Source: Nitrosopumilus sp. (GTDB taxonomy: Archaea > Thermoproteota > Nitrososphaeria > Nitrososphaerales > Nitrosopumilaceae). From it: a DNA stretch of 64,000 nucleotides. The position numbers and the translations under genes are program-made. The stretch spans positions 256,001-320,000 of the forward strand of contig OZ243974.1 of assembly GCA_965214775.1 (NCBI GenBank), read 5' to 3'. Under the pieces are notes generated by a model. The model made no database searches and had not been told where the DNA came from. It saw only the letters and a list, made by a program, of their open reading frames with translations. This document shows positions 19,485 through 49,756 of this stretch, piece by piece. How positions within the stretch are numbered: position 1 is the first letter of the stretch; each line of letters begins with the position of its first letter.

Positions 19485-20133
19485 ATGAATCTGGTTCCAG
19501 ATATCAGGCAAAGACCGGGCCCGCAGCAGCAGGTATCTATACGAGACGCTGGAGACGAACAGAAATCCTTGCAGGAGAACGAGGATTCGCAGTATCAGGA
19601 GATCTTTTACTGGAAGGGCAGTATTGCAGACACCGCGCCAAGCAATCCTAACGGGTTCAAACCCATTGATCTGCCAAAGGCGCTGGATGAGACCATGAAT
19701 CTGGTAAATGGTGATCCGACTTACAAGGATCCGCATGATGCGCAGATCATGTTTTACAACCAGAAAAACTTTGACTCTCTGGGCATTATCCGGACGCGCG
19801 AGGATCTGTGGAGCCTTTCCACTCCCGTGTTTTGTGACGACGATCGCTGTCGCTTCAAGCACATAACCAACTGTAACACCAGAAGGCTTGTGGACATAAT
19901 CGAGGCGCTCTTTGTGGCAGATGACTGGCATGGAATGGCCGATTTTCGGTTTGCCCGTTGGGTATATGAGTTTGAGATGTCCTATTCTGGTCCTGACAAT
20001 CCGGACGCAATCAGAAAGGCCATATAGGAGTTGGGTATATGAGTTTGAGATGTCCTATTCTGGCCCGGTTGGATGGTCATATCGAAGGGTTTCTGTGCGT
20101 AAAGATACCAATCGGTTGGAGGATTGGAGATGA
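19485..20133 (+). pseudogene. Hypothetical protein interrupted by a 73-bp repeat-filler-repeat insertion
   Basis: Removing 73 bp joins ORF 19485 to ..SYSGPVGWSYRR..EDWR*, whose TGA overlaps the ATG at 20130. Confidence 0.7.
19957..20066. repeat. 37-bp direct repeat (1 mismatch) flanking a 36-bp unique filler
   Basis: GTTGGGTATATGAGTTTGAGATGTCCTATTCTGG(T/C)CC at 19957 and 20030. Confidence 0.9.
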
Positions 20134-20333
20134 TTAGGGCCCGCAGGCTGTTCCTAGTGCCGGTTCTGGCAATACTGTTCACCTCGTGGATACCTCTTGT
20201 CGGGATACCCGCGTGCATAATTCTGATTGTATGGTGGTATACGCGCAATCAGACAGACATACACGATTATTTCCGTGGAAGAAGTCATAGAAAGGGGGAG
20301 TTAAGCCGCGATGAGACAGAAAAATGGCGGTAA
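20130..20333 (+). CDS. Small membrane protein
   Basis: Hydrophobic hairpin; ATGA coupling with the restored upstream gene. Confidence 0.55.
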   Translation: MIRARRLFLVPVLAILFTSWIPLVGIPACIILIVWWYTRNQTDIHDYFRGRSHRKGELSRDETEKWR

Positions 20334-20368
20334 GGCCCCGCATGTCAGCCGGACTGCAGGCAGCAAGG

Positions 20369-20626
20369 CAGAGAGGTGATCTGAAATCAGAAGGTAACAG
20401 GTCGGGCTCTGGAAGCTGCTCCTGATTTTAGGCACGAATCTACACTGGAGGCCTCCCCGAGATGGCAAAACTCGCACCTGAACTTCCAGAGCCCTACCTG
20501 TTACATCAGAAGCCGTGGGAATTTTTCAAGTGGTTTTACAGATAATTTGTGTTTTGTTGATGTTTTGAGTTGTCTTATGTAATCATTTACAAGTAATCTG
20601 GCTCTGCTAATTGAGCCAACTCTCAG
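20369..20626. mobile_element. MITE family C (reverse orientation) interrupted by a nested IS66-type MITE
   Basis: CAGAGAGGTGATCTGAAATCAG...CTAATTGAGCCAACTCTCAG. Confidence 0.8.
20394..20504. mobile_element. IS66-type MITE (111 bp) nested in family C
   Basis: TIR GTAACAGGTCGGGCTCTGGAAG/CTTCCAGAGCCCTACCTGTTAC; perfect 8-bp TSD ATCAGAAG. Confidence 0.9.
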
Positions 20627-20638
20627 CGGAGATATACA

Positions 20639-20727
20639 AGGAGTTTACCCCTCACCTGAGATACGGCGTGGCAGGCGTGATCATGAAGGCTCCAGGCAGC
20701 AGTGTCGCCTGAGGGGTAAACTCGTAC
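20639..20727. mobile_element. MITE family A (reverse orientation, left tip eroded)
   Basis: GAGTTTACCCC...GGGGTAAACTCGTAC; flanks GATATACA(A). Confidence 0.85.
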
Positions 20728-20773
20728 GATATACAAAGCCATCAAGAGGCAGCGGCCTCTGCTCTTGTCTTTG

Positions 20774-21046
20774 GGGTTGTCGCCTGATTCATCAGAATTT
20801 CTGAAAACCATGCGATGTTATCCTGACTAGGCGTGCAAAAATGGCGGAGATTCAGAAAAGCGTGCGGATTGAGTCCGGCAGGTGGAATTAGGCGACAATC
20901 CCTTGTCTCTGTCGACGTGGAGGTTGTTGCCTAATTCGCCAGAATTCCTGAAAACCATGCGATGTTATTCGGATCAGGTGTGCAAGAGGGCGGAAATTCA
21001 AAAGAACGTCAGGTTGAGTCAAACAAATGAAGTTAGGAAACGGCCC
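20774..21046. mobile_element. Two tandem MITE family F copies (about 20774-20901 and 20921-21046)
   Basis: TIR GGTTGTCGCCTAATTC...GAATTAGGCGACAACC; also at 46859 and 60964. Confidence 0.85.
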
Positions 21047-21204
21047 ACCTCCTCTTCCTCTCTGCTGTCGATGATCTGACTGCAAACCTTGCAAAAAAAC
21101 CAGGGCCGTTTTCTGAGAAATGCAAGTGACTGCCGAGTCCTGTCCGAAACAATAATGGCCCGGGCTTTTGGCGTTCCTATGCCGCATCTGCACCACGAGC
21201 AAGA

Positions 21205-21299
21205 CATAGTGCGCACAGTTGAAATCTGAAAATTTTTTATCAAAATAGGCACGATATGTCAAAATTACGGTCCGTTTTTTTTTTGATGTGCGCACTATA
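21205..21299. mobile_element. MITE family K (IS630-like TA ends)
   Basis: ATAGTGCGCACA...TGTGCGCACTATA; partial homolog at about 33570-33632. Confidence 0.75.
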
Positions 21300-21349
21300 G
21301 ACGGCATTCTGAAACAATAAATCACTAATCAATCCACGGCAAGTAGATC

Positions 21350-23866
21350 TTGAAATTTCCATGTCCCAAATGCAAGTCAAAAATTGAGATTCAAAAGACA
21401 TTCAACAAAAAAATGCACGTTTCTTGCAGCAAATGTGGCATATGGGATCTTTTGGAATTTGCAAAGAATCCTGATGAAGTGTTTCTGGAATTTTTGGAAA
21501 GATACGACAAGGGATTAGTTGGCAGGAAGGGAGGGTTAGAAGAGAGTCTCAATGCAGAAGAGATAATAAGATCAGAAGGCGAAATCAAGGGCTTGATCGG
21601 AGAGAAAAACCCCGACAGGATTACTGAGGAAATACTATATTCAAAAAAAGACTACATCTCAGAATACAGGGTTTTGAAGAATCCTGAGCCCGAAATGGGC
21701 AGCAAAATTGAGGATTTGGGACTGGAAGACGGAATCACAGATCACCTGTCAGATTTAGGAATAAGGCAGCTTTACAAGTTTCAAGAGGAGTCCATTTCTG
21801 AAATTCTTTATGGCCAGAACATCGTAATCGAGGCACCGACTGCTTCTGGAAAAACCGAGGCGTTCTTGATTCCCATAGTCCAGAAAATAAAAAAAGACGG
21901 AGTCAAAGGCAATGTTTTTGCGATTTTTGTATATCCCACAAAGGCCCTTGCACGAGATCAGCATCCCAAGATAAAGAATCTTGCAGACAAGGTTGGAATC
22001 AGAGTAGGGGTTTTTGACGGAGACACACGACTTGAAGAAAGAAGAGACATTATTGACAATCCTCCACACATACTTGTAACAAATTTCGATGTCTTGCACT
22101 ATCACATGTGGCATCAGACAAAATTTTCGTCAATTTTAACATCAACGCAGATGCTAGTCGCAGATGAAGCACATGTCTATTCAGGCATTTTTGGAACAAA
22201 CGTTCACTATATCATCAAGCGATTAAAGCGAATTTGCGCAAAAAAGATCCAGTTTATTGCGGCGTCTGCAACACTTGATGACGCCAAAGAATTTTGTCAG
22301 GAATTGTTTGGCGAGGAGGAAATGCAACTGATTCACGGTTCTGGAAAAAAAGGCCAAACGGACTTTGTCATGATGTTTCCGTCACTTCGAACGCAAAGGG
22401 CCTTGATGGTAGATTTGACAAAACGGCTAACGCAAAAAAAACACAAAACAATGGTTTTCAACAACTCCCATCTAAATTCAGAACTTTTAGCCATTCAAGC
22501 TAAAAAGCAAAAAGTCAACATCAAGGTTCACAGGGCAGGACTAATGGCCAAATACAGAACGTCAGTCGAAAAGCAATTCAAAGAGGATAGTCTGGATGCA
22601 ATATCCTGCACTCCCACGCTTGAACTAGGCATAGATGTAGGAGATGTTGACGGGGTAATCTCGTCCACAATTCCCGTCAACAGGCTTACTCAAAGGATAG
22701 GCCGCGCGGCAAGAAAAGGTCAAAGGGGATACGCATTTTTGGCATTGGGAAATGATCCGATTTCCCAGTATTACAAAAATCACCCGGATGATTATTTTGA
22801 GGACATAGAGAAGACATACATAGATCCTAAAAACCCATTTGTCGAAGAATTCCAAGTCTTGGCAATGGCTTGTGATAGGCCAATATCCAAGCACGAGTTA
22901 AAAGAGCATCAGGAGATAATCGGGCATCACCTGACCAACGGGAATCTAAAAGAACACGGAAACAGAATAATCCCCAATTTTGAGAAAGTTTCCCCAATGC
23001 TAGACGACTACAGCATCAGGGGCATTGGAAAGTCAATAGATATTTTTCTTAATGGGAAAAAAGTCGGAGATAGAGTTTTACCAATCGCACTTGAGGAACT
23101 GCATGAATCTGCGATATATTTTTTGGCAGGGACAAGATACCGTGTCAAAGAACTGGACTATCCTAGAAAAAATTATGCAAAGCTGGAAAGGATTCCAAGA
23201 GACTATCCATATTATACAAAGGCACTCACAGAAGAATGGCCCACAATAGAAACAGTCTATGAACGGCGAACTGCAAATGGAATGGAAGTTGCGTTTTGCA
23301 AATTACGCATTGAGAAAAAAGTTCACGGTTATGTAAACATGGAACTAGGTCAGGAAATTACGCAGGGTGAAAAGATGATGCTTGATGAGCCATTAGAATA
23401 CGGCTTTATTACAAAGGGAATTGTATTTCATGCTCCACGTCCAACGAAGACTATCAAAGAATCCGAAGATGAGGAATATGCCGAAGCCAGCGGATATCAT
23501 GCAACTGAACATGTCGTAATTGAAGGAAGCAACATGATCACAGGAGGGGTTTCCCAGGATTTGGGAGGCATTTCGTTGGGCACTTCAGGCCTGATTTTTG
23601 TGTATGACGCGGCCATCGGAGGCAGCGGGGCAAGCAAAGCCCTCTATGACAGACTTGAAAGAGCCCTTGAGAGAAGCATGCATATTGTAAGAGAATGTCC
23701 ATGTAAAAGCGAGGCAGGATGCCCGAGATGCACATTCTCATACAGATGCGGAAACAATAACGAATATCTCCACAAGCATTCTGCACTAGAAGTTCTTGAG
23801 AGGATCAACGGCGGTCAAAAGACCAGGCTGATTGATCCGGCAAAAGAAGACAGGCCTTTGGTCTGA
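21350..23866 (+). CDS. DEAD/DEAH helicase with C-terminal DUF1998 Zn domain (Hrq1/SftH-like)
   Basis: PTASGKT, DEAH, SAT, QRIGRAAR, CPC..GCPRC. Confidence 0.9.
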   Translation: MKFPCPKCKSKIEIQKTFNKKMHVSCSKCGIWDLLEFAKNPDEVFLEFLERYDKGLVGRKGGLEESLNAEEIIRSEGEIKGLIGEKNPDRITEEILYSKKDYISEYRVLKNPEPEMGSKIEDLGLEDGITDHLSDLGIRQLYKFQEESISEILYGQNIVIEAPTASGKTEAFLIPIVQKIKKDGVKGNVFAIFVYPTKALARDQHPKIKNLADKVGIRVGVFDGDTRLEERRDIIDNPPHILVTNFDVLHYHMWHQTKFSSILTSTQMLVADEAHVYSGIFGTNVHYIIKRLKRICAKKIQFIAASATLDDAKEFCQELFGEEEMQLIHGSGKKGQTDFVMMFPSLRTQRALMVDLTKRLTQKKHKTMVFNNSHLNSELLAIQAKKQKVNIKVHRAGLMAKYRTSVEKQFKEDSLDAISCTPTLELGIDVGDVDGVISSTIPVNRLTQRIGRAARKGQRGYAFLALGNDPISQYYKNHPDDYFEDIEKTYIDPKNPFVEEFQVLAMACDRPISKHELKEHQEIIGHHLTNGNLKEHGNRIIPNFEKVSPMLDDYSIRGIGKSIDIFLNGKKVGDRVLPIALEELHESAIYFLAGTRYRVKELDYPRKNYAKLERIPRDYPYYTKALTEEWPTIETVYERRTANGMEVAFCKLRIEKKVHGYVNMELGQEITQGEKMMLDEPLEYGFITKGIVFHAPRPTKTIKESEDEEYAEASGYHATEHVVIEGSNMITGGVSQDLGGISLGTSGLIFVYDAAIGGSGASKALYDRLERALERSMHIVRECPCKSEAGCPRCTFSYRCGNNNEYLHKHSALEVLERINGGQKTRLIDPAKEDRPLV

Positions 23867-23908
23867 AAATCAAAATAGGATAAATAAGACAAAAATGCTG
23901 GATCAACC

Positions 23909-24739
23909 ATGAAAGGGGTTGCTCTAGTTACAGGAAGCTCGTCAGGAATTGGATTGGAGACAGCATTGGCGCTGGCCAGGGACGGATATCATACATTTGC
24001 CAGCATGAGGGACACAGGAAAGTCAAAAAAATTAGAGGATGCCGCAAGAAAGGAAGGCCTCGACATAGAGATTACAGAATTGGATGTGGACAAGGAGGAG
24101 TCAATTGTTGCTGCAATCAAAAAAGTTGTGGATTCTAGGGGCAGGCTTGACGTACTGGTAAACAATGCAGGGTATGGGCAGTTCGGATGTACTGAAGATG
24201 TGTCTGTTGAAGATTTCAAGAAACAGTTTGAAACTAATTTCTTTGGCGTTGTGAGAATTATTCAAGAGGTTGCGCCAATTATGAGAAAGCAGGGTTCAGG
24301 TAGCATCATAAACATTAGTTCTGTCGTAGGAAGAATCGGACTGCCTGGCTCTCCGGCCTACATCAGTTCAAAATTTGCGTTGGAGGGACTAGCAGAGTGC
24401 CTGCGATACGAACTGGGCCAGTTTGGGATCAACACGACACTCATAGAACCAGGAGTCACCAAAACAAACTTTTTTGATTCTATGAGAATTCCAGAATCAA
24501 GGATAGACCCAAAGTACAAGCAGATGGCTGACAATATTTTGTCAGGCCTCAAGATGATGGTAGAGATGGGAACAGCGCCATCTCATGTTGCCAATGTGGT
24601 CGTGAAATCCCTTCACGATGAAGAAATGTTGCCAAGATACCTTGCAGGCTCAGATGCTGCAATGTTTTTGGAGGCTAAAAAAACAAAGACAGACATTGAG
24701 TTTGAGAAATATATGAGCAAAGAGCTCTTCTCTCACTAG
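23909..24739 (+). CDS. Short-chain dehydrogenase/reductase
   Basis: TGSSSGIG, NNAG, YxxSK. Confidence 0.95.
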   Translation: MKGVALVTGSSSGIGLETALALARDGYHTFASMRDTGKSKKLEDAARKEGLDIEITELDVDKEESIVAAIKKVVDSRGRLDVLVNNAGYGQFGCTEDVSVEDFKKQFETNFFGVVRIIQEVAPIMRKQGSGSIINISSVVGRIGLPGSPAYISSKFALEGLAECLRYELGQFGINTTLIEPGVTKTNFFDSMRIPESRIDPKYKQMADNILSGLKMMVEMGTAPSHVANVVVKSLHDEEMLPRYLAGSDAAMFLEAKKTKTDIEFEKYMSKELFSH

Positions 24740-24804
24740 CATCGCATGCCTACGTTAACTTGATATACGCATGAAATGCAGTTTTTGTCAAAGTCTGCAA
24801 TTTT

Positions 24805-26499
24805 ATGGTGAAAAGAATGGCACAATGGGAGAAACTAGAGCACAATGGGATCCTTTTTCCACCTGACTTTGAATCTCAGGGGGTCAGGATAAGGATCAAG
24901 GGAGAAGATGTTGAGCTCAATCTAGAACAAGAAGAGATGGCATACCAGTGGGCAAAAAAGAAGGACACGCCTTATGTTCAGGACAAGATCTTCCAAAAGA
25001 ACTTTACAGTAGATTTTGCAGAGAAGCTGGGCCCCAAATTTAAGAAAATCTCATATGAGGATATCGATTTTTCTCAAGCCTACAAACTGGTGGACATGCA
25101 AAAAGATCGCAAAGAGATGATGAGCAAGGAGGAAAAGAAAGAGCAGGCAAAAAATAGAAAAAAAATACGGGAAGAGCTCAAAGCCAAATACGGAATTGCC
25201 AAAATGCAGTTAAAAAAAGGCGGAAAGATAGTCGAGGTAGAGGTTGGAAACTATATGGCCGAGCCGCCTGGAATTTTTATCGGCAGGGGAGAGCATCCGC
25301 TCAGAGGCAGGTGGAAACCCAGAGTTACGGAGAAGGATGTGATTTTAAATCTTGGAAAAGAGGCACCAAGACCAAAAGGCAGTTGGAAAGAGATCAGACA
25401 TGATCAGGATTCCACGTGGCTGGCAAGATGGACGGACTTTCTCACCAAAAAGACGAAATATGTTTGGCTTTCTGATGGCTCTGATCTAAAACAAGGCAGA
25501 GACAAGGAAAAATACGAAAAAGCGGTAAAACTTCAAAGAGAGATAGAGAAAATCAGAAAGGCAATGGCCAGAGACATGAAGGATGAAAAGAAAAGCAAGG
25601 TTGCCACCGCATGCTACCTGATTTACAGGACTGCAATGAGGGTGGGAGATGAAAAGAACGAGGACGAGGCAGACACAGTTGGTGCAACGACGCTCAGGAC
25701 AAAACACATAAAGATTACAGCTGATCAAATAGAGTTTGACTTTTTGGGAAAAGACAGCGTAAGATGGCAAGAAACCCTAAAAATTGAAGGAGACGATGAT
25801 GCACAGTTTCAGGAAAATCTCCAAAAACTAATCGGAAAGAAAAGGCCGGACGAGGATATTTTTGACGAAATCACATCCAGAGATGTTAACAAGTACTTTT
25901 CTGGAATTGTAAAGGGACTGAGTGCCAAAGTGTTCAGAACGTACCTGGCAACAACCAAGGTCAAGAACTATCTTGTCCAGCACGACAACATAAGAAAGGA
26001 GAGCCCAAGTGCAAAGATTTACCATGCAAAACTAGCCAACCTGGAGGCTGCGATCATGTGCAACCACAAAAGAACCATTCCTAAAACATTTGAGCAGTCA
26101 TTGCAGAAAAAACGTGATACTCTGAAAAATGTTGAACAAATCAGGACGTGGAACAAAACCCGGGAAGCGCTGAAAAAGGCCAAGGCATCTGAGCCAAAAA
26201 CAGAAACCCAAAAGGAAAAAAAGGCAAAGAAAATCAAGAGACTAAATGAGCGAATCGAAAAACAAAAGACAAGACACAAAGAGAGGGTTGAGAAATTAAA
26301 ACTGCAAATTGACTTGTCTGAGCAGACAAGAGATTACAACCTAGGCACGTCTCTTAGAAATTATATCGATCCAAGAGTCTTCAAAGCTTGGACAGACGAG
26401 GTCGGTGCCGAATGGGAAAAATTGTACACCTCAGCATTGCAGAAAAAATTCCTATGGGTCAAAAAAGAGAATCTTAGTTGGAAGGCCATCAAAAAATAG
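24805..26499 (+). CDS. DNA topoisomerase IB (eukaryote-like)
   Basis: GRGEHP.RG, MRVGDEK, FLGKDS, AKVFRTY, CNHKR, TSLRNYIDPR. Confidence 0.95.
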   Translation: MVKRMAQWEKLEHNGILFPPDFESQGVRIRIKGEDVELNLEQEEMAYQWAKKKDTPYVQDKIFQKNFTVDFAEKLGPKFKKISYEDIDFSQAYKLVDMQKDRKEMMSKEEKKEQAKNRKKIREELKAKYGIAKMQLKKGGKIVEVEVGNYMAEPPGIFIGRGEHPLRGRWKPRVTEKDVILNLGKEAPRPKGSWKEIRHDQDSTWLARWTDFLTKKTKYVWLSDGSDLKQGRDKEKYEKAVKLQREIEKIRKAMARDMKDEKKSKVATACYLIYRTAMRVGDEKNEDEADTVGATTLRTKHIKITADQIEFDFLGKDSVRWQETLKIEGDDDAQFQENLQKLIGKKRPDEDIFDEITSRDVNKYFSGIVKGLSAKVFRTYLATTKVKNYLVQHDNIRKESPSAKIYHAKLANLEAAIMCNHKRTIPKTFEQSLQKKRDTLKNVEQIRTWNKTREALKKAKASEPKTETQKEKKAKKIKRLNERIEKQKTRHKERVEKLKLQIDLSEQTRDYNLGTSLRNYIDPRVFKAWTDEVGAEWEKLYTSALQKKFLWVKKENLSWKAIKK

Positions 26500-26580
26500 G
26501 AAGAAGGCCCAAAGTTTCTGCCCCAAGATTCCAGAAAAATCACGGATGAGACCATGACGATCTATGTCAGGGATCCCAAG

Positions 26581-28716: not shown

Positions 28717-28785
28717 GTGCGGCGGCGGTGCGGGCGGCGGTGCGGGTGGCGGTGCGGGTGGCGGTGCGGGTGGCGGTGCGGGTGG
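28717..28785. repeat. 12-bp G-rich tandem repeat (GGCGGTGCGGGY), about 5 units
   Basis: Read directly. Confidence 0.9.
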
Positions 28786-32182: not shown

Positions 32183-33531
32183 AGTTTGTTGCATAACTCC
32201 GACTAGAACCAAATCAGTCCGCCCGGATCATGACCGGCGCCCGGTTCCTACATGGCAGCCACCGCCTCTGCAATCCACTTGTTGTACAGCCATATTCTCA
32301 GCTTTACCTCCTGCACTATATTGGACCACTTGAGGGCCATTACGCACTCGCCGAACATGCGCTTTATGGACGATATCACGATCTCTACTATCCACCTGCT
32401 GCCAAAGCCGACCGTGCTCTTCCAGTACCGCAGGTTCTCCTGTCTTTCCTCCTTTGATAGGCTGCCCACCGGCTCCTCGGGGCCGCCCCCGAGCTGCCAT
32501 CGTACAAGCATGCCCCACTTGTCGCCGGTGCCCTTGCCCTTTGCAGTACAGCTTGTCAAAAGCCGTATGAGCGGTTTTATGCCGCGCTTGTGACACTCGG
32601 CTACGTTCTTCCTTGAGCCGTATGCGCCGTCTGCAAGCAGGATCTTTCCCGGCGTATCAGGATTCGCGCCGGTGTCAAGCAAGGTCATCGGTGAGATCCC
32701 GTCTGCAAGCATGTTGGGAATCTTGACTGCATCTGCGCCGTCGGTGAGTTCCTGCTGCTGCTGCTCTTCCTTGATGTTCTTGACTGCATCTGCGCCGTCG
32801 GTGAGTTCCTGCTGCTGCTGCTCTTCCTTGATGTTCTTGACTGCATCTGCGCCGTCGGTGAGTTCCTGCTGCTGCTCTTCCTTGATGTTCTTGGTCGCCT
32901 CCTCAAGCAGTGTCGGCAGTTCCGTGCTGTCGCCGACTGCATCACTTGTGACAGATACTGCCAGCATCTGCTTGGTGTCTGCGTCGACCATCAGGTGTAT
33001 CTTGACGAATCCGCGCCTTACCTTCCATTTCTTGCATATCCACTCGCCCCGATTGTGCTGCTTGAGGCCCGTGGCATCGGCTATCATGACCAGGTTGCGG
33101 GGCTTGTCGCGCACCGTGATTACGTGCTCTGCAATGTCGACGTCAAGCTTTTGTATTCTCCTGAATATCGTGGCATAACACGGCGAGTCCGCACCCTTTA
33201 GCATCTCCTCGAACATGCCTGACAGCTGCCTGTACTGTATCATGAATGCGGTTCTGAGGGCGGCTGCGGCCATTATCATGCCTTCTGCATACAGGAACGG
33301 GGCGCCCTTCTCCTTGTGGCAGTTGGCATCCTTGAGATCCTTCTCCCATTCCGGGTTGTACTTAACGATCAGGCCTGCCCCCCTCTTTACGTACTTTGCA
33401 TTGTCTGTTTGTGTCAATGTATACCAAACGAGGCATCCTCATGATCCATTACTTTTTCGGTAAGGATTAGTTGATCATTTTGGTGATTTTCAGTCAGATT
33501 TCAAATTTTAGGAAGAGTTATGCAACAAACT
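32183..33531 (-). mobile_element. IS5-family (IS903-like) insertion sequence
   Basis: TIR AGTTTGTTGCATAACT/AGTTATGCAACAAACT enclosing a transposase; no TSD seen. Confidence 0.9.
32248..33417 (-). CDS. IS5-family DDE transposase with in-frame tandem repeat insertion
   Basis: IADATGLK..GEW, KIHL, LADGAY, RWIVE..S.IKR; 3 x KNIKEEQQQ(Q)ELTDGADAV. Confidence 0.9.
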   Translation of the reverse strand: MTQTDNAKYVKRGAGLIVKYNPEWEKDLKDANCHKEKGAPFLYAEGMIMAAAALRTAFMIQYRQLSGMFEEMLKGADSPCYATIFRRIQKLDVDIAEHVITVRDKPRNLVMIADATGLKQHNRGEWICKKWKVRRGFVKIHLMVDADTKQMLAVSVTSDAVGDSTELPTLLEEATKNIKEEQQQELTDGADAVKNIKEEQQQQELTDGADAVKNIKEEQQQQELTDGADAVKIPNMLADGISPMTLLDTGANPDTPGKILLADGAYGSRKNVAECHKRGIKPLIRLLTSCTAKGKGTGDKWGMLVRWQLGGGPEEPVGSLSKEERQENLRYWKSTVGFGSRWIVEIVISSIKRMFGECVMALKWSNIVQEVKLRIWLYNKWIAEAVAAM

Positions 33532-40514: not shown

Positions 40515-40586
40515 AATGCAAACCCAACTTTGAGAAAAAAAAGATGGTTTACGGTTGGTCCTATCGACATTAGGCTGCTACTCTCC

Positions 40587-40626
40587 CTGCCTTCTCCTGC
40601 CTTCTCCTGCCTTCTCCTGCCTTCTC
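40587..40626. repeat. 10-bp tandem repeat CTGCCTTCTC x4
   Basis: Read directly; abuts a MITE C copy. Confidence 0.9.
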
Positions 40627-40962
40627 CTGAGAGTTGATTCGAAATTAGCAAACTCTGATTATTTGTGAACGAATTTGTATAGAACGGCTCAAAACATCAA
40701 CAATATACAAACTATCTGTGAAATTACATGAAAAATTCACATTGTTTCTAATTTCGGATCATCTCTCTGCCTCCCTGCCTCCTCCTGCCTGTCTCATCCT
40801 CATCCTCCTCATCCACGTCTCCCTGCCTCCCTGAGAGTTGATTCAAAATCAGCAATCTAATTATGTGTAAACGAATGCAAAAGACAGTTCAAAACATCAA
40901 CAAGACATCTGTCAAATCAGTTGAAAAATTTGCAAGGTTTCTAATTTTGAATCGCTTCTCTG
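40627..40962. mobile_element. Two MITE family C copies (40627-40769, 40831-40962)
   Basis: TIR CTGAGAGTTGATTCGAAATTAG/CTAATTTCGGATCATCTCTCTG. Confidence 0.85.
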
Positions 40963-41084
40963 GGTTGGTGCGCCCTGTAAAGGCAAAGGCCATAGGGATA
41001 GTGCACGCCAAGACAAAGGATGGCCGCGTAGATGCGGACATACTTGAGGATCGCATAGGCCAGGCTCAGGTGCGGGATGACAGA

Positions 41085-41155
<71 letters not shown>

Positions 41156-41312
41156 TGGAACGCAGTATAATGCAGGTGGCAAAGATGAGCCGTTATCTAC
41201 TGTAGACACTACAAAGCAGGGTTCCCAAAGACAAACAGCAACCAAGTAAATGAGGGATCAAGGATGCAAAAGTGAACGATTGTCTATCACGTTTACAATG
41301 TATGTTCAACAC

Positions 41313-42766: not shown

Positions 42767-43118
42767 TTCTCGAATTAATTTTTCCATTAAATGATTTTGC
42801 AATTCCATATGCATGTGAAATAAAATCTTTGTCTGGTTTAAAATTTAAATCGAAATCTGCTTGAACTCTTAACTCATGAAGATCGTTTAATTTGTCACCC
42901 ATAGATGAATCTTTATTTTTAATTTTCTCAATTATGTCTTTATGTATTTCATCATTTTTTGAAAAATTCTCTCCCTTTTCTTCCAGTCTTAATTTTGCTT
43001 TCAATAGGGATGAATAATAGCTTCGATTTATTGCAGTTCTAATACCAGCTTCATTTTGTAATTCTGATTTTCTTCGAATCTTCTCAACAAAACCTAACAG
43101 TTCTTTTGGATCAAACAT
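42759..43118 (-). CDS. HEPN-domain protein
   Basis: RTAINRSYYS..H..LNDLHELRVQADF pattern. Confidence 0.85.
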   Translation of the reverse strand: MFDPKELLGFVEKIRRKSELQNEAGIRTAINRSYYSSLLKAKLRLEEKGENFSKNDEIHKDIIEKIKNKDSSMGDKLNDLHELRVQADFDLNFKPDKDFISHAYGIAKSFNGKINSRIN

Positions 43119-43119
43119 T

Positions 43120-43899: not shown

Positions 43900-44777
43900 T
43901 CACCAATTACCTCTTTTTCTATGCCTTCAGCAAGTTCCTTAACTAACTCATCTTTAATCCTTCCTTCAATAATTGGGATCTTACTTTGAATGGGTTGCTT
44001 GCTTGGTTCCAAAAATCGGATATAATACTCTCTCCATTCTTTGATAAGTTTCCATAACAAATCATTTACTTGTTCCTCGTGCATACCATTTCCATGTAAC
44101 TCTTCAAGTTTTTTTATATGTGGAATTACTTCATTTGAAATTCTTTTTTCAAAATCTTCTTTGTCTGTTGCAGTAGTGCCAACATACTCATCAATGCGAT
44201 CAATCATGACAAGTATTGATGAAAGCTGTAGATCTTGTGGATTTACACCATGGGTTCTAGACACTCTTGAGATTTCATTTAGTACGCCTTTTATAATATT
44301 GTTAGAACCATATGTGAGAAAATCTTTTGATGAAAATAATAACTTTGTAACTTTTTGTACAGTCTTACTAGTGTATTTAGTATTATCTGTATAACTACTT
44401 TTTTCATCATCTGGGAGTGTCACTTTTCGTGATTTTTCAATAGCACGATGAAAACTAATCCACAGCTTATTAAGATCATTCTTGTCTGATGATACTTGTG
44501 ATAGTACATTATCTGCAAAACTAGAAGTTTGATTAATTATTGATTCTACTCCTGCTGAGTTATTTACATTAAACTCACCATGTGCATCAAGAGCTAGTCG
44601 TCGTAAAAAGAATCCGGTAATGCCATAAAGCTGGGTGTCTGAAACCCAAGCATTTGTCATAATTCTATTTGAAATAATATTGGCAGTCTTGAAATCTTTC
44701 TTTTTTATTGCTTCCAAATAAATTTTCAAGTCTTGCTTGTATAATTTTGAATCATAGTTTGAAGATTCTTCGATCAT
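43896..44777 (-). CDS. Hypothetical all-helical protein (paralog of the 47808 gene)
   Basis: 293-aa ORF; aligns by eye with 47808-48210. Confidence 0.75.
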   Translation of the reverse strand: MIEESSNYDSKLYKQDLKIYLEAIKKKDFKTANIISNRIMTNAWVSDTQLYGITGFFLRRLALDAHGEFNVNNSAGVESIINQTSSFADNVLSQVSSDKNDLNKLWISFHRAIEKSRKVTLPDDEKSSYTDNTKYTSKTVQKVTKLLFSSKDFLTYGSNNIIKGVLNEISRVSRTHGVNPQDLQLSSILVMIDRIDEYVGTTATDKEDFEKRISNEVIPHIKKLEELHGNGMHEEQVNDLLWKLIKEWREYYIRFLEPSKQPIQSKIPIIEGRIKDELVKELAEGIEKEVIGE

Positions 44778-45385
44778 ATTGTGTGCAACAATTTGTATGT
44801 TGGTTATTTAATATATCTATGGTATCAGTCTTCTGTATGAGTTTACCCCTCAGGCGACGTTTCCAGTCAGGGTCTTGGCGACCATCTCACTCACGTTGCA
44901 ACCCTGGGCGCGCCAGTTCATCGTGCATGTCATCAGTACGGTGAACATCTCCATGCCCTCCATGGTACGGAGTCCCTGGAATATCTTGCGCGCAATTACG
45001 GACGGCCTCAGCATGCGCTCGGCCAGGTTGTTGGTGGGCTCCATGCCCGGATACAGCACGAACGTGTACAGGTATTCTGAAGCGTTCCCAAGCTTTGTAG
45101 CAAATCTCGCGCAACCTGCCTCCCTGAATGCTACGGCCAGTGCGCGTGTCTCGACTACCAGCATGTCGTGCTGCTGCTACCTGGTATCGTCCTTCTCCGG
45201 TGGTGGTGGTTCCAGCCCCTTGGCAAAGAGGAACTTTTTCTTGAGTGTATCATACAGCGCGTGGGCCTGCCGGGAAGTCTTGTCGGCATCCTTGGCCTCC
45301 CGGAGTATGTGTGCCCAGCACCACTGCCTAGTCTTGAATACGACATATACACCGTACCCGTCGACTGTAGCTGGTTTGTCATAAT

Positions 45386-45465
45386 AGACTTTATGCGTAA
45401 TCGACCTGAATGAGATGAATTTGTTCGTAATAATCCTAGATTTGAACCAATTACGCATAAAGTCT
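45386..45465. mobile_element. MITE family B inside the IS66 transposase
   Basis: Removal with one AAT restores the frame NFPYYDKP. Confidence 0.92.
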
Positions 45466-45681
45466 AATACGGAAAGTTCGTGTCAACTACTATCCTGCCC
45501 TTGCTGGGTGCAACCAGCGTGTGGACGCCGGTTATGCTGCCGTCCTTGTCCTTGCCTACTACCACCCATATACGGGCCGTCCTGCCGTTGTATGGCATGG
45601 CAGTCTCGTCAATATGCAGATAATCAGAATCTCGGATGGCCTGCTTTATGCCCTCTACGCTGGGCTTTATTGCCTTGGTGC

Positions 45682-45791
45682 AGGCCCTCAGGCACTGCAG
45701 CACGCCTGCCTCTGAGACCTACGTCCTGCGGGCGTACTTTGACATCCAGCTATTAGGCCCTCAGGCACTGCAGCACGCCTGCCTCTGAGAC
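45682..45791. repeat. Perfect 37-bp direct repeat flanking a 36-bp unique filler
   Basis: AGGCCCTCAGGCACTGCAGCACGCCTGCCTCTGAGAC at 45682 and 45755. Confidence 0.95.
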
Positions 45792-46459
45792 GTCCATGTT
45801 CAGGATTTCTGAGCACATTGTGGCCGTGGCCTGTATGGAGGCAGGTGCCATGTGCATTGAAGTTATCATCCCCGTAATGTTTGGTCCAAACTCGGTTCCC
45901 GGCACGTTCCAGTCCCTGTCATCCTCCATACACACGTGGCCGCAGTCGGCGCATTCGCGTTTGTATGCGGTGTGCTGCTGTGTCGTGACCGGTTTGGGCC
46001 TCTTGGGGATCTCAGTCACGGTCTTTGAGAACATCCTTTTGGGCTTCTTCATGTTGGTGCTGCCGCACTTGTCGCACTTTTTGGGGCAGTGCTTTACAAA
46101 TTCGGTCGGCATCCTCTTGTGTGATATTCCCTTGTGTCCCTGCCTGCGGCCCGGCTTTGCCTTTGCAGATGCCGGTACGTTGCCTGATGCCTTTGCAGCA
46201 GCAGTCTTTTTCTGCCTGGTCGGAATCGAGTTCTGCGAGGATGGGGTGTGCGGGTTTTCGTAATATTTGATGTGCTGTTTGAGCTGCTGGTTTTCTGCTG
46301 TCAGCATCGTCTTTTCTGCCGTGACCTCGGCCAGCTGTTCGGTAAGCCCGACTATTGTCAGATCCTTGTCTGCGATGGTTCTATCCTTCCTGCCTAATTC
46401 GGCTATGGTGCGGGCCAGCTCGTCGCGCAGTATCTTGGTCTCTGAATCAGGCATGAATA

Positions 46460-46602
46460 CAGAGAGTTGATTCGAAATTAGCAAACTCTGATTATTTGTG
46501 AACGAATGTGCATGAAACAACTCAAAATATCAACAAAATACAAATTATCTGTGAAATTACTTGAAAAATTCGTATGGTTTCTAATTTCGGATCATCTCTC
46601 AG
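46460..46602. mobile_element. MITE family C
   Basis: CAGAGAGTTGATTCGAAATTAG...CTAATTTCGGATCATCTCTCAG. Confidence 0.9.
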
Positions 46603-46666
46603 GTAGGACGCCTCCCTTATGAGGAGGTCATGTAACGTGGCGGGGGTTCGAATCCCCCTCTTGACG
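46603..46666 (+). pseudogene. 5'-truncated tRNA gene with long variable arm, anticodon TAT
   Basis: CCTCC-CTTATGA-GGAGG anticodon arm; 14-nt variable region; GGGGG-TTCGAAT-CCCCC T arm; TCTTGAC-G. Confidence 0.75.
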
Positions 46667-46858
46667 CAGACTGCCTTCCAAACAATTGATCCTGACCGAT
46701 TATTTGTACGGAACCTAGAAGATAGGAAGCGAATTGCCATCCTGCAATCAGCGATGACGTTTTTGGCTGCAATCACCCCGGTCATGCCGGCCATCCGGTT
46801 TTCTCCGTCTTTGTTCAGGGCTGAATTGGGGATTGATTCTGTCGGGGCATCAGAAGGG

Positions 46859-46985
46859 AGTTGTCGCCTAATTCCATTTATTTGGCTCAATCTGCCAGTT
46901 TTTCTAAACTTCCGCCCTTGTGCACGCCTGATCCACATGGCATCTCAATGGTTTTCAGGAATTCTGATGAATTAGGCGACAACCT
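46859..46985. mobile_element. MITE family F (reverse orientation)
   Basis: GTTGTCGCCTAATTC...GAATTAGGCGACAAC. Confidence 0.85.
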
Positions 46986-47231
46986 CCTGCGCACGACCAA
47001 GAACTCATACACGAAGGAACCTCCTTCCTCAAGAACAACCATATGTGGAATGTGACAAGGATATCGCAGCCACACTCCGTATACAAGACACTTGAGCAGA
47101 TCGTGCAAGATAATACTATTCTATCCGCTTTATTGGAATTTCAATAACACAATACACATTTCCAGATATTACCATTCTAGTACCTCTGTGTCCTTGAGTC
47201 ATGCGAATAAGCCTTTCATGGTTCTTTTTTC

Positions 47232-47313
47232 GTACAACTTCAGGTCCTATTTAAACCGCCTAGGAATCTAGGAAGTATTTGCTTGCCAGTATAAATAGGA
47301 CCTGAAGTTGTAC
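47232..47313. mobile_element. MITE family E (82 bp)
   Basis: TIR GTACAACTTCAGGTCCTATTTA; perfect 8-bp TSD CTTTTTTC; interrupts a small ORF starting at 47382 (-). Confidence 0.92.
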
Positions 47314-47384
47314 CTTTTTTCTAAATTGACATGCAACTCTTTCTCCAAATATGGCATCACCTTCATCTAGATGTATTGGCATGA

Positions 47385-47795
47385 TTATTCAGGGCTATTG
47401 ATTAATTTTCCTTCGTTACGTAGAGAGTCAACAACATCCATTACCAACATTAAATCAAGACCATGCTCATTAGCAAAATCACTCGGATAGAAAATGTCAC
47501 CGACGTTAATTTCTTTCAAGAGAAGTTCACGTATTTGTTCGTTAGTGAGATCAGTATCTTCAGGAACTGCATCCATAGATGTGATTTTATGTTGTTTAAG
47601 AAGTTGCCACATGTTAGCATTATCTACAATTAATTTTTCAACGATAGAACGCAAATGTATGTAGGCATCAACTAAAGAAACATGCGCATCATCTGGTTTT
47701 TGATTTAAAATCCCATCACGAAAATATCTAAGTGATTGTTTGTTATCAGCTATTTCATTATCATGTTCACGTTCAGATTCAACTAGTAGCGTCAT
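47385..47795 (-). CDS. Hypothetical protein with C-terminal winged helix
   Basis: FYPSDFANEHGLDLMLVMDVVDSLRNEGKLI. Confidence 0.7.
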   Translation of the reverse strand: MTLLVESEREHDNEIADNKQSLRYFRDGILNQKPDDAHVSLVDAYIHLRSIVEKLIVDNANMWQLLKQHKITSMDAVPEDTDLTNEQIRELLLKEINVGDIFYPSDFANEHGLDLMLVMDVVDSLRNEGKLINSPE

Positions 47796-47807
47796 AATAC
47801 ATTCTCC

Positions 47808-48210
47808 TCAATCATAGTATGTACGCATTGTCCTTTTAGGTTTATCGTATCTTTGCCATGCTGTTAATTGATATAAAGTGGCAGTGTATCGTACTGCTTT
47901 TAACACTTCATATAATTTAGATAAATCTCCAGAATCATAAACATCAGGCAAAGGTTTTGCAGCTTCGATCATTTCATTTTTTAGCTTGTCAGACACGTCT
48001 TTAGGTACAGAGTAATTTTCTATTGTATGAGACAAATTAGAATAAACAGATTCCAAAACTTCACTGATGAAGACTTCATTTTTTAATTCCAAATTCCAAG
48101 ACAAATTAACTAAATCATGTGCAATCCTGTAACAAACAGCATAATTTCCGTCTTCAAGATTTGCTTGAATATCTTTCAGACGCTCTGAATACAGAGTTTA
48201 GCTCTTTCAT
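47808..48210 (-). pseudogene. Helical hypothetical protein with an indel near the start
   Basis: GAGGT then ATG AAA GAG CTA at 48210; a frame change leads to LYSERLKDIQANLEDGNYAVCYRIAHDLVNLSW and the ORF 47808-48104. Confidence 0.65.
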
Positions 48211-48262
48211 ACCTCAATACAATTCCAGCAGTATGTATATTAGACTTTGCGTAGTCAATGGC

Positions 48263-48430
48263 GTATGAGTTTACCCCTCAGGTGACGTTTCCAGTAATGG
48301 TCTTGGCGACCATTTCACTCACGTTGCAATCCTGGGCGCGCCGGTTCATCGTACACATCATCAGCACGGTAAACATCTCCATGCCCTCCATGGTACGGAG
48401 TCCCTGGAATATCTTGCGCGCAATTACGGA
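48263..48430 (-). mobile_element. IS66 right-end fragment
   Basis: Near-identical to 44835-45003. Confidence 0.9.
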
Positions 48431-48463
48431 CATGATCAGGAAGGCGCTGACCAGAAACCCCGG

Positions 48464-48551
48464 GTACGTGGTCATCTACCTCTAGCAATCCTGCATTAAT
48501 CTGCCTGCAGTTGTAATTTTCATGCCTGAACAGACGGGGGATGTGACTTTA
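48464..48551. mobile_element. MITE family D (diverged)
   Basis: Similar to the reverse complement of 48936-49029. Confidence 0.65.
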
Positions 48552-48801
48552 ATTCTAGGCAGGGGCTTAACCTGTTACGAAAAGTTCTTTGGCAAGAACA
48601 GGCAGCGGTGCTGGGCCCACATAATCCGGGAGGCAGATGCACAGAGTGAAAAAACGGATTCCCCGGAGGTTCGCGCCGCAGGCCAGCGCCTCAAGTGGCA
48701 GATGCATTGCGCCAAGGGGCTGGGGCCGCCGGAGGAGGCTGCCAGGCAGTACGACAGTCGGGTGGCAGAAACACGCGAGATTGCCGCCACATACAAAAAG
48801 G

Positions 48802-48883
48802 GTACAACTTCAGGTCCTATTTATACTGGCAAGCAAATACTTCCTAGATTCCTAGGCGGTTTAAATAGGACCTGAAGTTGTAC
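48802..48883. mobile_element. MITE family E
   Basis: Exact reverse complement of 47232-47313; TSD CAAAAAGG. Confidence 0.92.
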
Positions 48884-48935
48884 CAAAAAGGAAGGATGCA
48901 ACAGCTATGCCACAAAGGTTGACAACGCCTCGGAG

Positions 48936-49029
48936 GTATGTGATCACGTCCCCCCCGTTGGCTAGGCGTGAAAATCATAACCATACGTGACAATTCGTGC
49001 CTGATTGGTAGGGGTAGGTGACCTCGTAC
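48936..49029. mobile_element. MITE family D (94 bp, IS66-type GTA...TAC)
   Basis: Perfect 8-bp TSD CCTCGGAG; partial homolog at about 33638-33676. Confidence 0.88.
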
Positions 49030-49326
49030 CCTCGGAGTTTCTCTACACGTTTATGACGCGTCATGGGATGGATCCCACCAACAACCTAGCCGAGCGCATG
49101 CTGAGGCCGTCCGTAATTGCGCGCAAGATGTTCTAGGGACTCCGTACCATGGAGGGCATGGAGATGTTCACCGTGCTGATGACATGCACGATGAGATGGC
49201 GCGCCCAAAGTTGCAACATAAGTGAGATGGTCGCCAAGACCCTGACTGGAAACGTCGCCTGAGGGATAAACTCATACGGTTGTTGAGAAAACAACAAATA
49301 AACATAATTGACGATTCTGAAAATCA

Positions 49327-49605
49327 TTGTCAAATAAAATCAAATGCTCCCACATCCTAGTTGCCAAACAAAGCGAGGCTTTGGCAATTTTAGAGAGAAT
49401 CAGGGCAGGAGAAAAATTTGGAAAGCTTGCAAAGAAGTTGTCAACAGACACGGGAAGTGCAAAAAAGGATGGCAATTTGGGCTATTTTACCAAAGGAATG
49501 ATGGTAAAGCCGTTTGAAGAGACTGCGTTCAAACTGCAAGTCGGAGAGATTTCAGAGCCAGTAAAATCAGAATTCGGATACCACATCATCAAGAGATTTG
49601 CATAA
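49327..49605 (+). CDS. Parvulin-type peptidyl-prolyl isomerase
   Basis: SHILV, GNLGYF, MVKPFE, FGYHII. Confidence 0.95.
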
Positions 49606-49640
49606 GCTGACAAATTTTTTTGCATTCTCTGCTTTAGCAG

Positions 49641-49756
49641 GGCGGCCCTCGCTGATTTTCTGGACTGCCATTTCACAGCCAGATGCCCATGTTTGCAATC
49701 AATACGACTGAGAGGCGGCCCTCGCTGATTTTCTGGACTGCCATTTCACAGCCAGA
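49641..49756. repeat. 43-bp perfect direct repeat with 30-bp filler (period 73)
   Basis: GGCGGCCCTCGCTGATTTTCTGGACTGCCATTTCACAGCCAGA at 49641 and 49714. Confidence 0.95.

Follow-up and report, generated by a model that had tools for sequence, protein, structure and literature searches.

Casposons are kilobase-sized elements with terminal inverted repeats, and their insertion produces a duplication of ~14-15 bp. Reportedly, Nivala, Shipman and Church (Nat Microbiol 2018) described non-canonical spacer integration by Cas1-Cas2 and the neo-CRISPR loci to which it gives rise. Off-target Cas1-Cas2 integration leading to neo-CRISPR loci is known for the type I-E system of E. coli (PMC6698737, PMC7054753, bioRxiv 10.1101/148544), and the evidence for natural off-target events in two other species is termed "circumstantial" (bioRxiv 10.1101/148544). 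Cas1-Cas2 from the archaeon Pyrococcus furiosus integrates off-target in vitro into plasmid substrates, at sites that share features of the CRISPR repeat and have repeat-length spacing (PMC6698737). Naive adaptation in this organism is described as drawing on self DNA, and transposons, CRISPR loci, rRNA genes and replication origins are its hotspots (PMC5737086).

Units of a related kind are found in the chromosome of a Nitrosopumilus sp., where a stretch of host sequence is duplicated around a short insert. As in the neo-CRISPR loci, the insert is the length of a spacer, the duplication is the length of a repeat, the sites are non-CRISPR chromosomal positions resembling the native leader-repeat region, and occasional second integrations produce small new arrays. 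The neo-CRISPR study reportedly relied on over-produced Cas1-Cas2 and supplied oligonucleotides, whereas the present events have become fixed in the genome of a wild archaeon with a type I-B system, at ~45-53 sites compared with 78 canonical spacers, with donors in the same genome and a visible selection filter.

The off-target integrase of P. furiosus is likewise archaeal, but the events described for it took place on plasmids in vitro, and those found here are chromosomal, inherited and numerous (PMC6698737). Self-derived inserts come here from IS copies and from the origin region, the free-end kind of hotspot described for naive adaptation. In that case, however, the spacers enter canonical arrays and are visible solely by deep sequencing of a population, whereas here self inserts would be kept because they lie at inert ectopic sites (PMC5737086).

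Units in the window

Plain coordinates refer to the window, the whole 64,000-nt stretch of DNA that was analysed, and those marked "genome" to the 2.83-Mb chromosome (Table 1). A repeat search of the window recovered three direct-repeat pairs, all with a start-to-start spacing of 73 bp, and no relatedness among the repeats of the three sites. The exact 73-bp period at mutually unrelated repeats had been described in a first-pass annotation, and all three pairs bear it out. The same annotation placed two of the scars in genes and held that deleting 73 bp restores the frame; this is true of sites 1 and 2, although site 1 lies in the non-conserved C-terminal tail of its gene. All three are probably fossils of off-target CRISPR adaptation by the resident Cas1-Cas2, of which the chromosome holds ~45-53 examples.

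Homologues of the gene at site 1 end ~7 residues beyond the duplicated codons, and without the insert ORF 19485-20027 would extend to 20133. No donor for the site 1 insert turned up in the same genome, among viral contigs or among metagenome contigs (exact matches only). Site 2 splits the IS66-family transposase gene into two minus-strand ORFs, 45753-46520 and 45464-45703; deleting 73 bp gives a 330-aa open frame. Examples of matches to its insert are genome 482713 (32 of 33 aligned positions) and genome 1025028-1024993 (34 of 36). Its 37-mer is present once, with the same flanks, in three paralogous IS copies (genome 50669, 1801225 and 2817769), which are unfilled sites. Site 3 is located outside any recognisable gene, just downstream of a gene for a parvulin-type PPIase (49327-49605), and the homology of its insert to the donor continues 3 nt into the repeat.

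The sequences of the three window fillers are consistent with an absence of terminal repeats.

Table 1. Parts of the three window sites, and positions in the window corresponding to filled sites elsewhere in the genome.
Feature	Position	Description
Site 1, target copy 1	19957..19993	37 nt, one mismatch (34 nt exact); codes ..WVYEFEMSYSG.. near end of ORF 19485-20027
Site 1, insert	19994..20029	36 nt, spacer-sized
Site 1, target copy 2	20030..20066	Original frame resumes and reaches stop at 20133
Site 2, target copy 1	45682..45718	37 nt, copies 100% identical; within IS66-family transposase gene
Site 2, insert	45719..45754	36 nt; a near-identical element is present in multiple copies elsewhere in the genome
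Site 2, target copy 2	45755..45791	37-mer
Site 3, target copy 1	49641..49683	Apparent duplication 43 nt, copies 100% identical; long-duplication class, period still 73
Site 3, insert	49684..49713	30 nt; donor genome 1469986-1470015, minus strand, 29/30
Site 3, target copy 2	49714..49756	
Unfilled paralogous site	45220..45255	Single-copy 36-mer; an insert of 36 nt separates its two copies in the IS copy at genome 894783
Candidate unfilled paralogous site	45835..45870	Placed by a cross-mapped joint

Genome-wide geometry and the origin of the inserts

A scan of the 2.83-Mb chromosome identified 53 isolated repeat-insert-repeat units, 45 of them clean. Among the clean units, most duplications measure 36-37 nt, with periods of 70-76 nt. 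Duplications of 36 nt occur in 16 units, of 37 nt in 9, of 35 nt in 5, of 38 nt in 4 and of 39 nt in 3, giving 37 of 45 between 35 and 39 nt with a mode of 36; the resident CRISPR repeats are 36 and 37 nt long. The period is 72-74 at 39 of the 45 clean sites, the insert is 33-39 nt long at 36, and the two copies of the duplication are still perfect at 39. Four of the clean sites have duplications of 43-46 nt with short inserts, and microhomology between insert end and flank is seen at 4/45.

Repeats with a 73-bp period occur far above chance expectation. When repeats of at least 30 nt with no more than 2 mismatches are counted, and the two canonical arrays are removed, 6 have a period of 71, 16 of 73 and 12 of 74. 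Background periods from 40 to 130 that are not multiples of 3 hold mostly 0-2 repeats each, with a maximum of 5. The sharp genome-wide peak at 72-74 is the one that the first-pass annotation had anticipated. Its "NGGCC ... C" segment motif did not carry over to the larger set, being present at 1 of the 45 clean sites.

Multi-insert sites contain at most two different inserts, and one site consists of four repeats around three identical inserts. At genome 895395, the 36-mer that would correspond to 45835..45870 is present four times, with three identical 37-nt inserts and a period of 73. One site holds two different inserts in an array-like arrangement, with its two identical repeats towards the junction-like side and the degenerate one at the far end.

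Could such units be decayed true CRISPR arrays, mobile mini-arrays or assembly artefacts? One site, at genome 1703413, shares 20 of 36 positions with the 36-nt canonical repeat; it may be a remnant, and was left out of the core set. Otherwise each site has its own repeat, taken from local coding, IS or intergenic sequence and present singly with identical flanks in paralogues, and no sequence is common to the repeats of different sites. The scars do not form a canonical array, for which a conserved repeat common to many units, a leader and a Cas6-recognised repeat would be expected. As for artefacts, a contig from an independent public run (corresponding to 49673-49881, zero differences) runs from the end of copy 1 through the insert and copy 2 into the downstream flank of site 3, and inserts of other scars were recovered in contigs of three runs. 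An artefact, moreover, would not copy inserts from the origin or from IS elements, nor show selection against out-of-frame hits. The probability of any of these origins is close to negligible.

Inserts differ from one another from site to site. Matches elsewhere in the genome over at least 80% of the length were found for 18 of the 53; one of these (2288313) was set aside, which leaves 17 inserts with same-genome donors. Six inserts are 100% identical to the donor over their full length. Donor-verified inserts are mostly 36-38 nt. IS copies are among the donors, as are two sites in the origin region beside orc1/cdc6. The trinucleotide TTN is found on one side or the other of 6-7 of the 18 donors, for which the canonical spacers, having no matches, give no PAM reference. 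A fixed first base was not enriched among the inserts.

At six sites, including site 2 of the window, exact paralogues carry the target once, with identical flanks. These unfilled copies prove true insertion with target duplication. Both protospacers and empty alleles had been suggested as checks in the first-pass annotation: the former exist in the same genome for 17 fillers, with a common PAM only weakly visible, and the latter are present as paralogues, the relatives being too divergent for an orthologous comparison.

An IS, MITE or casposon would leave the same element, with terminal inverted repeats and a short duplication, at many sites; this explanation was rejected, as the inserts vary from site to site and the duplicated stretch is 36-37 nt long. 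The casposase is a Cas1 homologue, and the units would share with casposons a Cas1-family chemistry with target-site duplication. Unlike casposons, the inserts found here are 30-40 nt, all different and apparently without terminal repeats, and the sole cas1 lies in the CRISPR operon.

The resident CRISPR-Cas system and the choice of targets

Six-frame searches of the genome returned exactly one cas1 (336 aa, 218.6 bits to TIGR00287) and one cas2, and detected no second cas1 or remnant of one. Together with cas4 they are located at genome 2.425-2.427 Mb, in a single type I-B operon adjoining an array of 68 repeats (37-nt repeat, spacers 33-39, mode 35). The operon is apparently intact, with a 591-aa ORF, cas7-cas5-cas3-cas6b-cas1-cas2-cas4, leader and array in sequence; the 591-aa ORF occupies the position expected for cas8 and has no Pfam match. 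A second array, without adjacent cas genes, consists of 12 repeats (36-nt repeat, spacers 36-39). The adaptation genes and array geometry that the first-pass annotation had looked to are thus present. None of the 78 canonical spacers matches the organism's own genome beyond 17 nt.

The resident type I-B cas1-cas2-cas4 module is proposed to have produced the units as follows. It would capture fragments of ~35-38 nt, many of them from the cell itself, with IS copies and the replication origin among the sources. Staggered attack ~36-37 bp apart would integrate these at ordinary chromosomal sites, the left edge of the target loosely mimicking the leader-repeat junction (..GGCT/GTCGTAATG, with the slash at the junction). 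Gap repair would duplicate the 36-37-nt target and so give repeat-insert-repeat units of 72-74 bp, and most hits in essential coding sequence would then be lost through selection. As the repeats around each insert are arbitrary stretches of host DNA, Cas6b presumably leaves the units unprocessed and inert, which would explain why self-derived inserts persist there but not in real arrays.

A target preference is evident. An orientation-free EM logo of the targets has an information content of 4.63, compared with 2.85 +/- 0.26 and a maximum of 3.38 in 40 random-site sets. Similarity of the targets to the leader-repeat junction of the 37-nt array reaches z = 5.1-5.7 against 20,000 random positions, and to that of the 36-nt array z = 0.5-1.6. 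At least five of the six junction bases match at 6/45 sites versus 0.94% of random sites, and the duplication has a 5' G at 39 of 90 ends, where 23.6% is expected (p = 3e-5). Similarity between the far end of the duplication and the 3' end of the repeat is modest (z = 2-3). Judged from these sequence comparisons, the actual target signal is a resemblance to the leader-repeat junction GGCT/GT.

The geometry agrees less closely with the cas-adjacent array. The modal duplication of 36 nt is one less than its 37-nt repeat, and donor-verified inserts of 36-38 nt compare with a spacer peak of 35, so that both suit the cas-less array better. A second adaptation module belonging to that array, and since lost, might therefore have written the scars, by the same chemistry, in place of the resident type I-B Cas1-Cas2. 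Over their whole length the targets show similarity to the 36-nt repeat (z = 3.1), and one relative, G014, has a distinct 577-aa Cas1 ORF beside an array whose repeat (...GGCCCCATTGAAGC) is very similar. Such a module is nevertheless an unlikely author: no trace of its cas1 is detectable in this genome, and it is the 37-nt array, not the 36-nt one, whose junction the targets resemble. The six donor-identical inserts and the 39 of 45 perfect duplications further point to recent events in a genome that now has the I-B module only.

Related genomes provide a further comparison. The same filter gives 42 hits in this 2.83-Mb genome, with 4-12 scars per 400 kb, and 0, 0 and 1 in 400-kb portions of three congeneric genomes that lack cas1. 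One look-alike in 1.2 Mb contrasts with ~18 expected (P(<=1 at this genome's density) = 4e-7). A Cas-independent origin of the 72-74-bp units, through templated insertion during break repair or an unknown ruler-based integrase, would accommodate that look-alike (32+42 nt, in relative G018) and the repair-like microhomology at four sites. Repair, however, gives no reason for a fixed 36-37-nt duplication and a 36-38-nt insert matching array geometry, nor for targets like the leader-repeat junction, and with the scarcity of look-alikes in cas1-free relatives this makes such an origin highly improbable.

Integration by the resident Cas1-Cas2 remains the preferred reading, and the idea that a Cas1-type integrase writes single-spacer units across the chromosome, already put forward in the first-pass annotation, gains support, with Cas1 as the probable agent. 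Besides the geometry, several observations count against it: the weak PAM signal, the lack of an enriched first base in the inserts, the modest similarity at the far end of the duplication, the look-alike in cas1-free G018, the cas1-positive G014, in which 400 kb contained no scar with a period of 70-76, and the 43-46-nt duplications, which plain two-ruler integration does not predict.

Selection and biological meaning

ORF interiors hold fewer scars than expected, and the scars that do fall inside an ORF mostly keep the reading frame. The earlier description of the integrase as an insertional mutagen was only partly right: surviving scars fall preferentially in non-coding DNA, at gene ends and at in-frame positions.

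It is conceivable, if somewhat short of probable, that mis-targeted adaptation is a major endogenous source of insertions, with the inert units as an uncensored record of the integrase, a supply of in-frame segments and neo-arrays, and a second strand transfer assisted by pairing. If so, the at least 45 fixed events beside 78 canonical spacers would be the survivors of far more, removed by selection, and the ectopic units would keep what the integrase samples, namely self DNA, IS copies and the replication origin. They would also add in-frame segments of 24 residues to proteins and seed multi-unit neo-arrays. At targets without the repeat-end motif, pairing of 3-9 nt between spacer end and flank beyond the cut would aid the second strand transfer, yielding apparent duplications of 43-46 nt with the period unchanged at 70-76 bp. 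No description of pairing-aided second strand transfer was found in the literature searched.

Most likely, the units represent natural off-target Cas1-Cas2 integration, which is of a known kind but unusual in density: the process is known from the laboratory and rarely seen in nature at such a scale. A search of the open-access literature found no wild genome with dozens of such events. The complete genome thus constitutes a dense natural data set, in which dozens of events, their donors and unfilled sites are accompanied by a matching resident CRISPR system. The in vivo fidelity of an archaeal type I-B integrase and the sequence features that define its target can be tested here, as can what naive adaptation samples without autoimmune censoring, and whether new arrays arise in this way. 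Carrying CRISPR would have a cost in insertional mutation, visible as the depletion of coding interiors and the excess of in-frame survivors.

Scars with the geometry of the resident arrays

In three places in the window, local sequence is duplicated around a short filler (see table). The first-pass annotation had reported one 73-bp period for all three, and the distance from start to start is indeed exactly 73 in every pair. The repeats of the three sites show no relation to one another on sequence comparison.

Scars and other repeats in the window
Feature	Position	Duplication or unit	Filler	Source
Site 1	19957-19993 / 20030-20066	37 nt, one mismatch	36 nt	repeat search
Site 2	45682-45718 / 45755-45791	37 nt, identical	36 nt	repeat search
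Site 3	49641-49683 / 49714-49756	43 nt, identical	30 nt	repeat search
Repeat like a small non-autonomous element	~20389-20515	~110 nt; at least 10 genome copies, 93-95% identity		
Simple tandem repeat	28721-28785	12-nt GGCGGCGGTGCG-type unit		
Simple tandem repeat	32721-32891	57-nt unit, three copies		
Simple tandem repeat	40586-40635	10-nt CCTGCCTTCT unit		
Simple tandem repeat	41078-41167	(CAGG)n		

The window, at positions 256001-320000, belongs to a single contig of 2,833,656 bp with a G+C content of 47%. A scan of the whole genome for local direct repeats, using exact seeds, gave the sharp peak that had been predicted, with counts of 20, 40, 29 and 20 at periods 71 to 74. Two canonical CRISPR arrays account for most of this raw peak. 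In a second scan the arrays were masked and 30-nt windows were allowed up to two mismatches; 6, 31, 16 and 12 isolated pairs were found at periods 71, 72, 73 and 74. Elsewhere among periods 40-130, multiples of three excluded, there were mostly 0-2 pairs and at most 5. Period 72 is contaminated by protein tandem repeats, which were taken out by hand.

The curated set consists of 52 isolated units and one tandem case hidden by the filter, or 53 scars. Eight doubtful units (genome 90701, 200048, 333824, 934396, 1405649, 1703413, 2288313 and 2343003) were set aside because their repeats are short or multi-copy, or because the repeat is array-like, leaving a core set of 45. The site at 2378877, at first doubted, was retained: comparison with its donor (the genomic match of an insert) showed that the insert is 37 nt long and that one copy of the repeat has lost 2 nt. 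In the core set the duplication is most often 36 nt long (16 scars), followed by 37 (nine), 35 (five), 38 (four) and 39 nt (three); the other eight are outliers. In 39/45 scars the period falls at 72-74; the two copies are identical in 39 and differ by one base in six.

Six-frame family searches of the genome found the genes of the kind of integrase that had been proposed, namely a single cas1, at genome 2426073-2426972 on the minus strand, and a single cas2. They are part of a single minus-strand operon of cas7, cas5, cas3, cas6b, cas1, cas2 and cas4 (NCBIfam, Pfam), adjoined by the ribosomal protein genes S4e and L24P, which mark the organism as an archaeon. A 591-aa open frame without a Pfam match lies upstream, at the position expected of cas8. 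Downstream, a leader of about 120 bp is followed by an array of 68 repeats. Read from the leader, the 37-nt repeat begins with 5' GTCGTAATG and finishes with 3' ATTGAAAC; the spacers are 33-39 nt, with a mode of 35. In a second array the repeat is 36 nt long and ends ATTGAAGC; it is present 12 times, the final copy being degenerate, and the spacers are 36-39 nt. Family searches of the flanks of this array recognised no cas gene. As anticipated, the duplications and inserts of the scars match these repeats and spacers in length, and the scar geometry is therefore the genome's own array geometry.

Unfilled sites and the choice of target

Proof that the scars arose by insertion with target duplication is provided by paralogous unfilled copies: for six scars, a paralogue carries the segment once, with identical flanks. 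Since the chromosome is very repeat-rich (for 393/1500 random probes of 636 bp, a second copy extends across the centre), several scars lie within multi-copy elements. The idea that IS or multi-copy DNA is preferentially targeted was rejected, as 15/53 scars have a spanning paralogue and there is no enrichment over the random probes.

Site 2 splits an IS66-family element and has unfilled copies at genome 50669, 1801225 and 2817769. The split element and nearby degenerate fragments of related copies occupy window 44850-46950 and 48258-49333, and copies elsewhere bear three further scars (genome 894783, 895395 and 1929695). Window 45220-45255 is the unfilled counterpart of the scar at 894783, which lies in another copy of the family; window 45835-45870, placed from a cross-mapped joint, is probably that of the scar at 895395. 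Orthologous empty alleles were sought by comparing 1.4 kb around site 1 with 30 relatives, and the DNA matches, of 68-88% identity, stop short of the site.

At the level of reads, Logan assembled contigs of public sequencing runs were used, which break at repeats. One contig of run X7 equals window 49673-49881 with zero differences and takes in site 3 from the end of copy 1 through the insert and copy 2 to the flank. The inserts of three other scars are present as cross-mapped joints in runs X1, X5 and X7. Among the joints listed from these contigs, none skips 73 bases as an empty allele would.

The sites of insertion share a pattern. An expectation-maximisation search with orientation as the sole free choice gave 38 clean sites a logo of 4.63 bits, against 2.85 +/- 0.26 (maximum 3.38) for 40 random site sets. 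The preferred bases in the logo, G (-3), C/G (-2), T/C (-1), G (+1) and a pyrimidine (+2), are those of the junction between leader and repeat in the cas-adjacent array, GGCT/GTCGTAATG. When 52 sites were compared with 20,000 random positions, similarity to this junction reached z = 5.1 over a hexamer and 5.7 over 13 nt; the second array's junction scored 0.5 and 1.6. At least five of the six junction bases are present at 6/45 core scars vs 0.94% of random sites, and the 5' base of the duplication is G at 39/90 ends of the core set (p = 3e-5). The far end of the duplication shows a modest similarity to the 3' end of the repeat (z = 2-3). The NGGCC start motif of the first-pass annotation, present at one of the 45 core scars, did not hold up.

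Two sites contain more than one insert. At genome 1266834-1267014, two different inserts stand between three repeats. From the junction-like side (GGTGCT/GCAGCC), both proximal repeats are identical and the distal one is degenerate, and the proximal insert matches an IS donor at 100% identity. Exactly this layout would be expected of a second integration with polarity. Genome 895395 has four repeats around three identical inserts, probably through duplication of the unit.

Four of the 45 core scars, including site 3, form a class with apparent duplications of 43-46 nt and inserts of 28-32 nt, the period still being 72-76. Chance extension would produce 0.08 such scars (p about 1e-6). In the three that have a donor, donor homology enters the repeat by 3-5 nt. 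One hypothesis is that normal geometry is combined here with microhomology between one end of the spacer and the DNA just past the second cut; such microhomology might place the 3' end where the repeat motif is absent.

Origin of the inserts

No two inserts are the same. A BLAST search against the genome itself bore out the suggestion that they have protospacers: 18/53 have a genomic match over at least 80% of their length. The match for the unit at 2288313 was dropped as a donor on two grounds: it is a multi-copy element, and the homology carries on for 14 nt within the repeat. Six donors are identical along the entire insert (28-38 nt) and several more are one base off. IS copies are among the donors; one insert matches 12 element copies and another 11. 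Among the canonical spacers, 0/78 match the genome beyond 17 nt. For the insert of site 1, BLAST found no donor in the genome, and there were no exact matches in viral contigs (36 nt) or metagenome contigs (28 nt).

Of the common PAM that had been expected there is a weak signal: TTN adjoins 6-7/18 donors, on one side or the other. A fixed first base derived from a PAM, considered as a way of reconciling lengths of 36 and 37 nt, was rejected (C at 23/90 insert ends, p = 0.62), and canonical spacers have no fixed first base.

No more than about 160 bp separates two of the donors (genome 1053573-1053734). Here, outside the window, G000:C1:1053292-1053670 (positions 13292-13670 of stretch L127) holds three boxes with the core GTGGAAAT(A/G)AAGGGGT, which we take to resemble archaeal origin recognition boxes. 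Two of these boxes, inverted relative to each other, flank 118 AT-rich nt. The region is directly upstream of orc1/cdc6 and between both DNA polymerase D subunit genes, and the cumulative GC skew peaks locally near 1.05 Mb. Because it is AT-rich, framed by inverted boxes and beside these genes, the region is very probably a replication origin.

In the simplest reading, the integrase of this genome would sample self DNA, as in P. furiosus, for which PMC5737086 describes hotspots at transposons, CRISPR loci, rRNA genes and rolling-circle origins. Self spacers would be lethal within a functional array; at ectopic sites, with 'repeats' that Cas6b cannot recognise, they would be harmless.

Selection, relatives and the integrase

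Empty sites were reconstructed for 44 scars and classed, together with 3000 random positions, according to where they fall relative to open frames of 120 aa or more. Scars are depleted in the interiors of such frames (18/44 vs 63.4% of random positions, p = 0.003) and 21/44 lie outside any of them, vs 24.2%. The period is divisible by three in 8/18 interior scars vs 2/26 others (Fisher p = 0.008). The enzyme would therefore be an insertional mutagen, which bears out the claim in part; the scars that can be seen are the tolerated ones. Sites 1, 2 and 3 fit this pattern: at site 1 the last ~21 residues are replaced in a protein of 191 aa, the homologues of which stop shortly (a few residues) beyond the duplicated codons; site 2 is within a transposase; and site 3 lies downstream of the gene for a PPIase.

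Four relatives of the same genus (G002, G014, G018 and G072), not independent of one another, were sampled over 400 kb each rather than as whole genomes. Under one common filter, the present genome has 42 matches at periods 70-76 in 2.83 Mb, with 4-12 per full 400-kb block; at this density 17.8 would be expected per 1.2 Mb. A Cas1 family search of the complete genomes of G002, G018 and G072 gave no match. The samples of G002 and G072 contain no match at these periods. That of G018 contains one look-alike (32+42 nt) and 12 matches at period 72 or 75, which from their clustering and common motif appear to be protein-coding tandem repeats. G014, with several cas1 genes and three arrays, has one unit of 33+34 in its 400 kb and no match at periods 70-76.

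A further relative, G066, has the closest cas1 orthologue, interrupted by two stop codons and beside a decayed array. It carries three units with period 71-72, duplications of 41-45 nt and inserts of 27-30 nt (stretches L089, position 5498; L090, 4047; L105, 18130). These belong to the long-duplication class of site 3. Matches at period 62 in G014 and G066 were rejected as scars, being pairs of origin recognition boxes.

The modal duplication of 36 nt differs from the 37-nt cas-adjacent repeat, and donor-verified inserts of 36-38 nt are about two above the typical cas-adjacent spacer. Either the integrase has an intrinsic ruler of 36 nt when no repeat-end motif sets the second cut, or the scars were made by a lost adaptation module that served the 36-nt array. 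For the latter, an array of G014 (L085, G014:C1:75001-95000) has repeats ending ...GGCCCCATTGAAGC, like those of the cas-less array at G000:C1:1977219-1978062, and adjoins a 577-aa Cas1 open frame; the present genome may have lost the module that G014 keeps.

The closest known phenomenon to the scars is non-canonical Cas1-Cas2 integration giving rise to neo-CRISPR loci (Nivala et al. 2018). As summarised in papers citing that study (PMC6698737, PMC7054753, bioRxiv 10.1101/148544), these were rare off-target events in E. coli over-producing Cas1-Cas2, with circumstantial evidence in two other species (bioRxiv 10.1101/148544). In vitro, the P. furiosus enzyme is described as integrating at non-CRISPR sites with repeat-like features (PMC6698737). 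Among open-access papers, our search turned up none that describes dozens of such events in one wild genome.

Off-target spacer integration by Cas1-Cas2 remains the preferred reading. Because every defining feature that could be tested is found here, the scars are very likely a natural case of this non-canonical integration, with Cas1 as the probable agent. What is notable here is the presence of 45-53 ectopic units vs 78 canonical spacers, with self donors identified, unfilled sites and a signature of selection.
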